Below are positions 45,475-64,000 of a DNA stretch of 64,000 nt, piece after piece. A program made the position numbers and the translations under genes. The notes under the pieces were generated by a model. That model did no database searches, was not told the origin of the DNA, and saw only the letters and a program-made list of their open reading frames with translations. The stretch is from Zootoca vivipara (taxonomy: Eukaryota): assembly GCF_963506605.1 (NCBI RefSeq), contig NC_083277.1, forward strand, positions 3,906,001 to 3,970,000, given 5' to 3'. Numbering within the stretch: position 1 is the stretch's first letter; each line of letters begins with the position of its first letter.

Positions 45475-56010
<10,536 letters not shown>

Positions 56011-59027: not shown

Positions 59028-59444
59028 TAGTGGTACCTCGGTTCTAAAACTTAATCCGCTCCAGAAATCTGTTTCGAAACCAAAGCATTCCCAAACCAAG
59101 ACGTGCTTTCCCATAGAAAGTAATGCAAAACGGATTAATCTGTTTCAGACTTTTAAAAACAACCCCTGAAACAGCAATTTAACCTGAATTTTACTATCTA
59201 GCGAGACCATTCATCCATAAAATGAAAGCAATAAACAATGTACTGCAGTCACACAATCAATCAGTAGCTGAACTGGGTTCCACACAGTCACAAAAACAAA
59301 ACGAAAAAGAGCCGCAAAAACCCAAAAGTCCTCAGCATAACACTCAAAACGCAAGTGTGTCACTCAAAACAGAAATGTGTCACTCAAAACGGAGGACATT
59401 TGGCTTCCGAAAAATGTCCACAAACCGTAACACTTACTTCCGGA
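59028..59444. mobile_element. Tigger-like element (left part), insertion target of the gypsy element
   Basis: Begins tagtggtacctcggtt; interrupted at 59445 by an LTR. Confidence 0.7.
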
Positions 59445-59872
59445 TGTGAGGGACAGGGGATATCGCGAAGTCCCTCCCCTCCTGAGTTCAAGCCCGTCCC
59501 CGAGCAAAGGGGAAAGCAGGGAGAGTTCCGATTCCAGTGGGGAAGCAGGAAGTCGTGTCCGAGGCTCAGGCAAGGTAGAGGAGCCAGGGTCCCAGGTGGG
59601 ACAGGAAGGGGCAAGCAAGGGGGGAAGACCCATCCCTCCAACTCCAGAATTACGCAGGAAGAGGAGGGGCAAGAGGATGGGTCTGCCAAAGCTTTTGTGT
59701 TGGAGAAAGACGCGCCAAAAGCCATTAGGAGGTTCTGAAACCGACTGACAACATCGCTCCGTGTAAATAGCAATGACTTGAGCACTGTAAATACGCAGCA
59801 CCAATAAAAGAATAAAATGCAGAGCTGCGTAGCGTCGTTACTCTGAAGTAGTCCACTCCGGCCACTGTGACA
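59445..59872 (+). repeat. 5' LTR (428 bp)
   Basis: TGT...ACA termini; AATAAA at 59803 and 59811; followed by the PBS. Confidence 0.8.
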
Positions 59873-59914
59873 GCAACCTCCTAATCATTTTTGGGCTACT
59901 TCGGAGTTGCCGGG

Positions 59915-61141
59915 ATGAGCGTGTCCGAGGCGGAGAAGTGGCGGCAGATCGCTGAGCAAGCCCAGCTAGAACTGCAACAGCTGTCGCTGCAGGCGCAGGG
60001 AGAATTGAAGGCAGCTAAAGAGGAGACTAAGAAGGTCCAGGACGACCGGCTACAACTTGCGGAACAGGTGAGAGAGCTCCAGGAAAAAGAGCAGCATTTA
60101 AGGGCGGTGGCGGTAGACCTCCAAAACAAGCTGGATGCAGAGAAAAACAAGGCGGGAGGGGCTCCCCAAGTCCAAGTGCTGCCAGGAAGGAGAGCAGGGA
60201 CCCTTGTAAGCAAGTTCAATGGAGACCCGAAGGAGTTTCAGGGCTTTGAGACTGAGATCGTGTATGCTCTTGAGCTGCACCAGAATGAGTTCCCCGATGA
60301 TGAGCACAGAGTAGCGTTTATTGTGGAACATCTCACCGGAGCAGCCAGGGAGTGGCTAAGACCATTAATCGCAACCAAGAATCCTTGCATGAAAAATGTC
60401 CAACAATTTCTAGAAGGTTTGAGGACGATGTATTCGTCCGATAGTCATTTGGACCAGACTAAGGAGGAACTGCATAATTTACGCCAAGGAAATATGACAG
60501 TTCGCGCATATTGGGCGAAATTCACCATGCTGGTGCACAGACTGGGGTGGGTTTTGGATTCGCCTCCCATGCAAGCTGCGTTTTACTTGGGTTTGAGCGA
60601 GGAGGTGAAGGATGAACTCTCGAGAGGTCCAAAGCCCAGTACTATGGATCAGCTGAGCAAAGCAGCTCTGGCGGTGGGGGTGAGGCAGGAATCCCGGTGG
60701 AACGACAAGCAAGCGACGCGCGCAAAGCGGGCTTGGTTCCCACGGTCGCAGGAGAAGCCACTCCCTCAACAACCCTTTCAGGCCACGCCTGGAGCCAGCC
60801 AGGACCAGGAGCCCATGCAGATTGATAGCGCGCGCGCGCGGGCTTTTCAAACCCCAGCGGCGCCAAGACGCAAGGAGGGAAGGGGCGGGAATTGCTTTCT
60901 CTGCAACTCACCCCAGCATCTCGTCAGAGACTGCCCACATCGCAGGGAGTGGCAAGGAAAGGCGGGAACGGTGGTGCCCTCCCCCACTGACGCAGCACCA
61001 CAGCAGGGAAACGGGAAAGCCTGGCTGCAGGAGACAAGGGGCAGCAGCCAGGCACAGTCAGCAGACAACAGCCCCAGCCCGCCCACCCGCACAGAGAGGT
61101 GCAGAGCCAGCCCACCCCTCCCAGAGCAGGAGTGGTTCTAG
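59915..61141 (+). CDS. gag: Gag (coiled coil, capsid, CCHC knuckle)
   Basis: KFNGDP...LTGAAREW...LRQG; PMQID; CFLCNSPQHLVRDC. Confidence 0.92.
   Translation: MSVSEAEKWRQIAEQAQLELQQLSLQAQGELKAAKEETKKVQDDRLQLAEQVRELQEKEQHLRAVAVDLQNKLDAEKNKAGGAPQVQVLPGRRAGTLVSKFNGDPKEFQGFETEIVYALELHQNEFPDDEHRVAFIVEHLTGAAREWLRPLIATKNPCMKNVQQFLEGLRTMYSSDSHLDQTKEELHNLRQGNMTVRAYWAKFTMLVHRLGWVLDSPPMQAAFYLGLSEEVKDELSRGPKPSTMDQLSKAALAVGVRQESRWNDKQATRAKRAWFPRSQEKPLPQQPFQATPGASQDQEPMQIDSARARAFQTPAAPRRKEGRGGNCFLCNSPQHLVRDCPHRREWQGKAGTVVPSPTDAAPQQGNGKAWLQETRGSSQAQSADNSPSPPTRTERCRASPPLPEQEWF
61006..61075 (+). other. -1 programmed ribosomal frameshift signal
   Basis: G GGA AAC heptamer in the gag frame, 6-nt spacer, 10-bp stem gcctggctgc/gcagccaggc. 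Confidence 0.85.
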
Positions 61142-64000
61142 AAGTGACGCTAACGCTCCCAAATGGCTATCCCCTGACGGTCCTCGCCTTAATTGACAGT
61201 GGGGCGTCCGCCAACTTCTTCTCGAGAAGCTTTGCAGAAGAGCACCAAATCCAGCTTTTGCAGTTGGATTTTCCTCTGCACGTAGCAACCATTGACGGCA
61301 GGGAGCTGCTGGGAGGGGCCATCACACATCAAACCCCCCCCATGAGAATGACGGTGGGAAGGCACTCAGAGACACTGGCGTTCAACGTCACCACCATCTC
61401 AGACCCCCCCATCGTCTTGGGCATGAGCTGGCTGGCGCGCCACGACCCCTCCATCAGTTGGCACCAGAGGTGCATCACGTTTGGGTCAGACTTTTGTCTG
61501 GAACATTGCATGCAGCACCAACCAGGGGAGGGGCCTCCGATAGCCACGGTGGCCACCATGCATATCAAAGGGGGTGAGGCAATACCCAAGCAGTACTGGG
61601 ACCTGCAGGAGGTCTTCAGCGAAGCGGAGTCCGACCACCTACCCCCGCACAGGCCTTTTGACTGCCAGATCAACCTGGTGCCAGGGGCGACGATACCCCC
61701 AGCCAAGCTGTACGCCATGTCAGACCAGGAGCTGGAGGATCTGCGCGCTTTCATCGACAAGAACCTCAAGCGGGGGTTCATAAGGGAAAGCACGGCAGCA
61801 GGGGGCAGCCCGGTCTTCTGGGTGGACAAGAAAGACACGCAACAGCGCCGTCTTGTGGTGGACTTTAGACGGCTGAATTCGGTGACAGAGCCCGTGGCTT
61901 TCCCCATGCCCAGAGTGGATGATCTCCTGACAGCGGCACGCAGGGGCAAGATTTTCACCAAGCTGGACCTAAGGGGGGCGTACAACTTGATCAGGATCCG
62001 GGAAGGAGATGAATGGAAAACCACGATGTTCACGCCTCTGGGCTCTTTTGAATATCTGGTGATGCCCTTCGGTTTGCAAGGGGGCTCGGCATGCTTCCAG
62101 GCCTTCATGCACCACGTCCTGGGGTCCCTCCTCTTCAGGAAATGCTTGGTCTTCCTAGATGACATCCTTATCTACTCGAATGACCCAGTGCAGCATGTGA
62201 AAGATGTCAGAGAGGTGTTGCAACGCCTGAAGGAGAACCACCTGTATGTGAAGCTGGAGAAGTGCAAGTTTCACACCAAAGAGGTGGACTTCCTGGGCTA
62301 CAAGCTGTCAGACAAGGGGCTGGCGATGGACAAGGACAAGGTGCAGGCCATCCTGGACTGGCACAGCCCCAGGACGCGCAAAGATGCCCAACGCCTACTA
62401 GGCTTCGCTAACTTCTACAGGAAGTTCATCAAGAACTTCTCTCGCGTTACGGCTCCCATCACGGACTGCCTGAGAGGCAAGCAGAAGTTCAAGTGGACAC
62501 CAGAGGCGCAAGCAGCGTTCGAAAGCCTCAAGAGAGTGTTCGCCTCAGACCAAAACCTGTTCCATGTGGTGCAGGACGCGCCCCTACGCATTGAGACAGA
62601 TGCTTCTGAAAAAGCTGTGGGCGCAATTTTGTTGCAACTGGACGCCAACAGGGAGTGGAGACCCTGTGCCTTCTTCTCCAGGAAGCTGACACAGCCTGAA
62701 CGCAACTACACAGTGTTTGATAGGGAACTTCTTGCGATCTACGCTGCGTTCCAGCACTGGCGACACTTCCTGGTGGGCGCGAAGCACCCCATCCAGGTGT
62801 GCACAGACCACAAGAACCTGGAGTTCTGGAGAACTGCCAGGGTGCTCAACCAGCGGCAGATACGGTGGGCAGAGTTCTTCTCGAACTTCAACTTCTCCAT
62901 CCACTACATCCCGGGGGAGCAGAATGTCAGGGCGGATGCCCTCTCCCGCAAGCCAGAGTACATGGAGGAGGAGGCGCCACCAGCCCCAAGGCACATTCTC
63001 CCCCCGTCGGCATGGTCCTGCGGAGCAGCTGTGGTGAGCGAGGCAGAACTCACAGCACTGACGGCAGCGGATGAATTTGCCAACCGCATCTTCAGAGAAC
63101 TGAGAGGGGGGAGGGAGCAGGCAAAAGACTTTGCAGAACGCAGAGGGCTGCTTTTCTACAAGGGTGCGCTGTACCTACCCACCACCCAGCTTCGACGTAC
63201 GGTCCTCAAGCAGATGCACGACAACCCTACAGCGGGGCATTTTGGAAGGGACAAAACCGCTCACCTAGTCATGAGACACTTCTGGTGGCCAGGGGTGCGG
63301 GAAGATGTTCGAGACTATGTAAGGGGCTGTACCACCTGCCAGCGGGCGAAGGTGGTCAGAGCAGCGCCACCAGGGTTGCTGCAGCCCTTAGCCACACCAC
63401 ACAGGCCGTGGGAAGTGGTGTCCATGGACTTCATCACAGATCTGCCTTCGTCCAGGGGTAAGACTGCAGTGTTGGTGGTGGTGGACCTTATGTCCAAAAT
63501 GTGTCACTTTATACCGTGTGCCAGGGCAGTCTCGGCAGAAGAGACAGCCAAACTGTTTGTTGATCACATTTTCAGACTGCATGGATTACCTTTAAGGGTT
63601 ATTTCGGATCGTGGCCGCCAATTTGTTTCCAGGTTCTGGCGGCGGCTCATGAACCTCCTGCAGGTGGAGGTCAGCTTGTCGACGGCTAGACACCCGCAGA
63701 CCAACGGACAAGCGGAGAGGGTCAACGCCATTCTGCAGCAGTACCTGAGATGCTACGTCAGCCAGCGGCAAACGGACTGGGTGGATCGCTTGCCACTAGC
63801 AGAATTTGCCTACAACAATGCAGTGCACGTATCCACAGGGGTGTCGCCCTTTAAGGCCAATTACGGGCGCGACCTCAGATCTTTCCCAGAGAGGGAGAGG
63901 GAGGAGGAGGAGGAGGAGGGCCCACAGGCTGAGGATTGGGCAGAGGAACTGGAGACGGTGCACCAGCAGCTCAGAGAACACTTGGAGAGGGCCAAGGAAG
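61006..64000 (+). CDS. pol: Pol in the -1 frame (protease, RT, RNase H, integrase), 3'-truncated by window
   Basis: LIDSGAS, VMPFGL, FLDDILIYS, TDAS, HHCC zinc-binding region, SMDFIT / SDRG / QAER catalytic motifs; frame open from the slippery site. Confidence 0.93.

Follow-up and report, generated by a model that had tools for sequence, protein, structure and literature searches.

Tf1/sushi retrotransposons are found in vertebrates, fungi and non-seed plants, and self-priming of reverse transcription has been termed a common feature of the group (10.1101/2022.12.06.519325). In fission-yeast Tf1, the RNA's first 11 bases pair with its primer-binding site (PBS), and RNase H cuts between bases 11 and 12 (PMC7175516), and Tf1 cDNA retains a copy of the PBS plus non-templated bases at its 3' end (PMC11042837). 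The accessible parts of the literature present self-priming as demonstrated for Tf1, and as "implicated" or "predicted" for elements from fungi to vertebrates. Butler et al. reportedly predicted in 2001 both self-priming and a "pretzel" fold for the vertebrate sushi group. The initial annotation of the locus described here rightly called self-priming a proposed property of that group, and since it had already been proposed, finding it here is not surprising for the clade. Our comparison of Tf1/sushi elements draws on the accessible parts of 10.1101/2022.12.06.519325, PMC6317226, PMC3601003, PMC4600332, PMC11042837, PMC7175516 and PMC5341516; PBS types are listed in the supplements of PMC6317226, which may be informative on the frequency with which such pairing has been catalogued.

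The window analysed is a stretch of 64,000 nt from the lizard Zootoca vivipara, numbered from its first base on the forward strand. Judged by its sequence features and by the hosts of its relatives, the element near its right end is a young, full-length chromodomain Ty3/gypsy element (chromovirus) of the Tf1/sushi type. Its PBS is exactly complementary to an 11-base stretch of the element's own LTR, and the element very probably primes with nucleotides 1-11 of its own RNA rather than with a tRNA.

Architecture and relatives of the element

Table 1. Features of the self-complementary element, with positions in the window.
Feature	Position	Strand	Remarks
Left target-site duplication, CCGGA	59440-59444	+	Right copy, CCGGG, lies outside the window; single mismatch adjoins the LTR
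5' LTR	59445-59872	+	428 bp, TG...CA; identical to the 3' LTR 5,385 bp further on, beyond the window
T-rich stretch where a TATA box would lie (-33 to -23 relative to the primer)	59691-59701	+	Putative role; TTTTATG in two sister families
Predicted self-primer, ATTAGGAGGTT	59724-59734	+	Taken as RNA nt 1-11 (start of R); the C before it makes a pyrimidine-purine initiator
Candidate short third duplex, CTG	59735-59737	+	Pairs with CAG at 59871-59873, 59874 bulged; weak, varies among families
Two AATAAA polyadenylation signals (59803, 59811)	59803-59816	+	From the sequence
U5 arm of the U5-leader duplex	59840-59855	+	From folding and shuffles
2-nt spacer GC, LTR end to PBS	59873-59874	+	GC or GT in 12 of 12 family representatives
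Primer-binding site, AACCTCCTAAT	59875-59885	+	Exact complement of 59724-59734
Leader bases 3' of the PBS	59886-59888	+	In rare copies at other genomic sites, overwritten by the complement of LTR -1 to -3
Leader arm of the U5-leader duplex	59892-59907	+	16 bp with G-U pairs
gag, 408 aa	59915-61141	+	Retrotrans_gag, Ty3_capsid and DUF4939; CCHC knuckle in the translation
pol, 1,380 aa stop to stop	60991-64000 (window end), ending within the 3' LTR	+	Protease, RT, RNase H, integrase, Tf2-type SH3, chromodomain
Candidate -1 frameshift slippery site, GGGAAAC	61006-61012	+	In the gag-pol overlap; putative function

Together with neighbouring DNA (locus L031), the whole element measures 5,813 bp, including the PPT. 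The order PR-RT-RH-IN with a C-terminal chromodomain, the TG...CA LTRs, the PPT and the 5-bp duplication are those of Ty3/gypsy chromoviruses, while a CCHC-bearing Gag and the overlap of gag and pol in the -1 frame are those of Tf1/sushi members other than the fission-yeast ones. The overlap surrounds GGGAAAC at 61006, where frameshifting is predicted and which we take to resemble the frameshift site of PEG10. The nearest solved relative of the RT is Ty3 RT. Protein comparison found a sole Gag relative, labelled Zootoca vivipara (96% identity), and the Pol relatives of highest identity are labelled Podarcis muralis (62-70%); both agree with the initial annotation's lizard host. Labelled Pol relatives come from lizards, amphibians, fish, fungi and non-seed plants, those named being mostly from vertebrates, fungi and non-seed plants, which corresponds to the host range stated for Tf1/sushi elements (10.1101/2022.12.06.519325). 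The family is of very low age: all 40 scored LTR-leader matches and all 150 scored Gag-core matches are 100% identical to the window copy, and the target-site duplications measure 5 bp in most of the family copies checked.

The pol frame enters the 3' LTR by 304 nt (L031:5830-6133, equivalent to window 59445-59748) and stops just beyond the primer sequence, so that the primer bases double as codons there; family B pol likewise runs into its own LTR. Among 30 5' flanks, five have GGA as their last bases, resembling the PPT side just before the 3' LTR (the window copy at 59440-59444, L006, L007, L010 and L021). The duplication is imperfect in the window copy, L010 and L021 and perfect in L007, and the right flank of L006 was not found. 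Such flanks possibly reflect unprocessed U3 ends or joining by micro-homology. Elsewhere, three PBS sites at 5,385-bp spacing (G000:C2:16765331-16776118) form a tandem array of elements with common LTRs. The window also holds a 603-aa open frame (54199-56010), whose translation we assume to resemble a hAT-type transposase, and a pair of inverted repeats (51311-51519 and 51993-52201; 209 nt, 96%) that is likely a MITE.

Pairing of the LTR with the primer-binding site

The reverse complementarity of 11 nt between LTR and leader reported in the initial annotation is exact. With the LTR end fixed at 59872, the PBS begins beyond the GC spacer, and no TGG of the tRNA type occurs in the first 5 nt past the LTR, as had also been claimed. 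ATTAGGAGGTT and AACCTCCTAAT each occur once in the 64-kb window, and an exact 11-nt complement starting at most 5 nt from the LTR end was obtained with 17 of 20,000 base-shuffled LTRs. The pair is part of a looser inverted repeat (59715-59734 and 59875-59894) of 20 nt and 85% identity, with arms 140 nt apart. This extended repeat was considered as the true primer and rejected, since sister families do not conserve its outer arm (CCAAAA/TTTTGG).

Tf1/sushi elements combine the lack of a tRNA PBS with a PBS complementary to their own LTR, and both were found here. In tRNA-primed LTR elements, the PBS opens with TGG and is complementary to the 3' end of a tRNA or to a half-molecule; neither trait was seen against the partial set of host tRNAs compared, which comprised 39 distinct sequences from 50 loci with 12 anticodon labels, many of them probably tRNA-derived repeats. 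Within that set, the tRNA 3' end (CCA) matches over 0 nt, and internal matches reach 6 nt at best, so the comparison with host tRNAs that had been suggested as a check upholds the claim as far as the set reaches. The partial nature of the set, and the half-tRNA priming that exists in Ty1/copia lineages (PMC6317226, in its accessible parts), speak for priming by a small RNA of the host, such as a tRNA fragment, with the LTR complement as a structural element or relic; the copies and families described below make this highly improbable.

RNA reads of a related species carry an A-to-C change at 59727, inside the primer, and a genome search returned the matching PBS change at 446 sites. Among 30 sites fetched, 27 have a perfect 11-nt pair to their own LTR, two pair over 9-10 nt, and one (L033) has the C-type primer. 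Genome-wide, primer position 4 and PBS position 8 read A/T in 1,245 copies, C/G in 555, A/G in five and C/T in one; primer matches PBS in 1,800 of the 1,806 counted copies, and the six mismatched copies all have the identical primer in both LTRs. With 1,245 copies bearing the window's primer, the family is a large and very recent mutagen of the Zootoca genome. On a tree of 88 sequences (L251, L255 and L258 left out; tips poorly resolved), four of the five A/G copies adjoin the oldest A/T copies, as expected of intermediates, and L166 falls among C/G copies and L167 among A/T copies. In RNA run X20 from a related species, 59727C was present in 45 of 55 reads and 59882G in 54 of 61, unphased. 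The change between A/T and C/G is largely a single evolutionary event counted many times; the independent evidence lies in nine primer types.

These types came from the window and from 40 loci chosen from Pfam match lists. Searches with PF03732 and PF19259 gave for the most part members of the family group to which the window copy belongs. Eight loci (L102, L198, L199, L201, L202, L203, L205 and L213) could not be judged, as a 5' LTR end of their own or a match within the searched span was not found; the 32 that were judged have a PBS at LTR+2 that pairs with their own LTR at at least 9 of 10-11 positions. Each of the nine types, the window's included, pairs with its own PBS at LTR+2, six perfectly (ATTAGGAGGTT, ATTCGGAGGTT, ATTCGGAGGTA, AGTGCCGGATT, AGATGAGTCAT and GCCACAGCAA) and three at 10 of 11 positions, these last being single copies (ATTGCGAGGTT, ACTTCCGGATT and AGTCGAGTCAA; CpG decay explains two). 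Cross-pairing among distant groups (A, B/D and C) gives 2-5 matches. Every primer type has a purine first and a pyrimidine before it. Compensatory changes among family copies, proposed in the initial annotation as a check, are thus present both in the genome-wide counts and in the nine types that each fit their own PBS. Against a small host RNA as primer, nine PBS sequences would require nine different RNAs from the host, and the LTR of the element itself would have to match every one of them; moreover, the PBS tracks the LTR change in nearly all counted copies.

That all families have a C-G pair with a bulge at the cut site does not hold as a general rule, since L208 and L200 have no C after the primer, and the apparent LTR of L201 was dropped as a family C solo LTR, nested in reverse. 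Family C loci (L103-L111, L207, L214 and L215) mostly have large internal pol deletions together with near-identical LTRs bearing a pyrimidine-rich tandem repeat, which suggests non-autonomous spread. L102 (G000:C5, about 7.166 Mb) has an open 397-aa gag-like frame with DUF4939 as its top match and no LTR pair or pol in 10 kb, and is a candidate domesticated gag gene.

A duplex between U5 and the leader flanks the primer pairing. In the window copy it has 16 bp, with -35.7 kcal/mol for the region, a value matched by 2 of 300 shuffles. Of the 12 representatives, 10 have a duplex better than their shuffles (13 of 300 at most), while in the two from family B it is not significant (60 and 220 of 300). 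The third duplex, between R past the primer and the LTR end, has 3 bp here (CTG/CAG), up to 5/6 bp in some sisters, and is absent in others. Because the U5-leader and primer duplexes cross, nested folding holds only one or the other; the MFE structure from 59724 contains the U5-leader stem only, with z-scores of about -0.9, and folding energy is therefore no evidence either way.

Copying scars and the start of transcription

Since Tf1 cDNA keeps a PBS copy and non-templated bases, traces of such an end were sought in inserted copies. The base 3' of the PBS is C in 1,577 of 1,600 copies, G in 21, T in two and A in none, G being the complement of LTR -1. Seven of the 21 G copies are changed at this one base, 11 read GGC (complement of -3 to -1), two run on into a complete inverted U3, and one has GTC. 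Both LTRs of this last copy share a private C-to-A change at LTR -2 (GAC) that occurs nowhere else in the assembly. Scar variants are dispersed over the tree, and several, apart from the scar, match the window copy fully or almost fully across 1.3 kb, which argues for repeated origin. A CGC leader, a possible descendant of the GGC copies, was searched for and none was found, and no G scar appeared among two non-C matches in sister family A2.

Three insertions, L251, L255 and the family B copy L267, are fold-backs from two families, with the order LTR-GC-PBS-inverted U3 between 5-bp duplications, and two of them belong to the 21 G copies. L251 has an additional inverted LTR as well as an LTR-GGA-LTR joint, and the two arms of L267 agree at all 305 nt. 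No fold-back joints were present in three raw RNA runs of a related species. PBS position 11 varies to A only, in nine of nine cases: four substitutions, three insertions, and two junctions at a single tandem-LTR locus, where LTR, GC, 10 PBS bases and A are followed by the PPT end. Positions 5 and 6 show no variant, under search patterns that required more context than for position 11.

By analogy with Tf1, transcription would begin at about 59724, RNA nt 1-11 would anneal to the PBS within a pseudoknotted three-duplex fold, the element's RNase H would cleave after nt 11, and RT would extend via GC, U5 and R. The primer would remain on the minus strand and be copied into the plus-strand end, whereby the daughter PBS would be partly rewritten from the primer. 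What the Zootoca genome adds are two possible routes to the scars: the plus-strand primer-copy end, complementary to R+1 to +11, may snap back on R, with extension then proceeding through U3; or the copied primers may be ones that carry 1-3 additional bases at the 5' end. Either would give the G, GGC and GTC overwrites and the LTR-PBS-inverted-U3 insertions; snap-back is favoured by the GTC copy, which has no parent, and by the identical arms of L267. Either route would require a DNA end situated at PBS position 11 or inside it; such an end fits an 11-nt self-primer and not an 18-nt tRNA primer. The scars thus fit a primer of about 11 nt starting at, or at most 3 nt from, 59724. They follow from complementarity and a DNA end at the PBS, and cleavage by RNase H is proposed on the model of Tf1. 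Compensatory changes, a second Tf1-like duplex between U5 and leader, and scars ending at the primer boundary together support the self-priming that the initial annotation had proposed for this lizard element.

Complement and scars might also come from quasi-palindrome correction or gene conversion between the arms in chromosomal DNA, with no role in priming. The 20-nt, 85% inverted repeat counts in favour of this, as does the perfecting of inverted repeats that can take place during host DNA replication. The changes, however, run one way only, with 21 in the leader against none of the LTR to G (0 of 4 LTRs with non-C at -1), although the pattern misses long corrections that lengthen the A run. 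Having two U3 ends and 5-bp duplications, the fold-backs most likely integrated as such, and correction in the chromosome would leave the element without any primer. We give this account very little chance compared with copying from a self-primer.

The transcription start claimed at about 59724 found indirect support. In families B and C, a TATA-like motif (ATAAA or TAAAA) precedes the primer by 29-32 nt, and this spacing agrees with the scars, which put the primer-copy end at most 3 nt away; we infer a start at about 59724 from both. In the window's own family there is no canonical TATA box, only the T-rich stretch, and RNA-seq gave transcripts of LTR and leader but no start site. Three raw runs from a related species contain sense reads through the LTR end into gag and cover U3 too; in X20, positions 59684-59749 have a depth of about 30 and positions 59838-59848 one of about 97. 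Read ends do not pile up at 59724, and reads lie on both sides. Reads from 3' LTRs and solo LTRs would account for this.

The same primer sequence could instead come from a longer RNA with cleavage after +11, supplied by an upstream start, read-through, the 3' copy of R or another packaged genome; 59724 need not then be the main start. RNA coverage of U3 and the missing TATA box of the window's family agree with such a source, as do the whole U3 behind the PBS in fold-backs, the LTR-GGA-LTR joint of L251, the mismatched copies with one primer in both LTRs, and L166 and L167, which lie inside the other subfamily's clade and fit two-template events. Most scars, however, end after 1-3 nt, a third of the G copies after a single base; PBS position 11 is an error hot spot; the ATAAA of families B and C has the spacing of a start at the primer; and the identical arms of L267 are what self snap-back predicts. 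We therefore regard a longer source RNA as unlikely and retain priming by the RNA's own 5' end.

C follows the PBS (59886 in the window) in 10 of 12 representatives, though LTR -1 is never G; L240 has G and then C. Speculatively, this C is a copy of the RNA cap G.

Meaning of the scars and comparison with described elements

We lean towards reading the 1,800 copies as a germ-line fossil record of self-priming, in which the PBS is rewritten each cycle, snap-back overwrites and inverted U3-ended dimers are specific to self-primed elements, and the C after the PBS may copy the cap. With the PBS rewritten from the element's own primer each cycle, compensation would take one mutation, not two. If this is true, scar counts would map primer length and start site of any self-primed family from genome sequence alone, and they offer a cheap way to separate self-priming from tRNA priming where the former is merely suspected (BEL/Pao, copia). 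The family itself provides genome-scale in vivo support for self-priming in a vertebrate, with the exact bases named. Self-priming is expected for the clade; the genomic scars are the new part, and covariation and scars together exceed routine annotation. In the literature outside subscription journals, no paper turned up that deals with lizard self-priming or with genomic scars of this kind, which is weak evidence of novelty, nor were genome-wide covariation counts and copying scars found for vertebrate sushi elements.

As far as the accessible parts of the sources describe them, Tf1 and Tf2 of Schizosaccharomyces pombe share with the lizard element an 11-nt primer complementary to the PBS, a flanking U5-leader duplex and a chromodomain integrase. 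One flanking duplex of the Tf1 "pretzel" is thus shared, whereas the other has only 3 bp here. Cleavage is proven in Tf1 and proposed by analogy in the lizard element, and the Tf1 PBS abuts the LTR directly, where the lizard element has its 2-nt spacer. In Tf1 and Tf2 there is one ORF, without CCHC, in contrast to the two ORFs in -1 overlap and the CCHC Gag found here. The PBS copy and non-templated bases at Tf1 cDNA ends correspond to the scars of the lizard element (PMC7175516, 10.1101/2022.12.06.519325, PMC11042837, PMC5341516). Tj1 of S. japonicus and the Tosmo/Tcry and Tcn1 clade likewise have a PBS complementary to their own LTR, from which self-priming was deduced. With the vertebrate sushi elements, the accessible parts of whose description cover these traits, the lizard element shares a vertebrate host, a chromodomain, the -1 overlap of gag and pol, a CCHC Gag, LTR ends TGT...ACA and AATAAA near the LTR end (PMC3601003).
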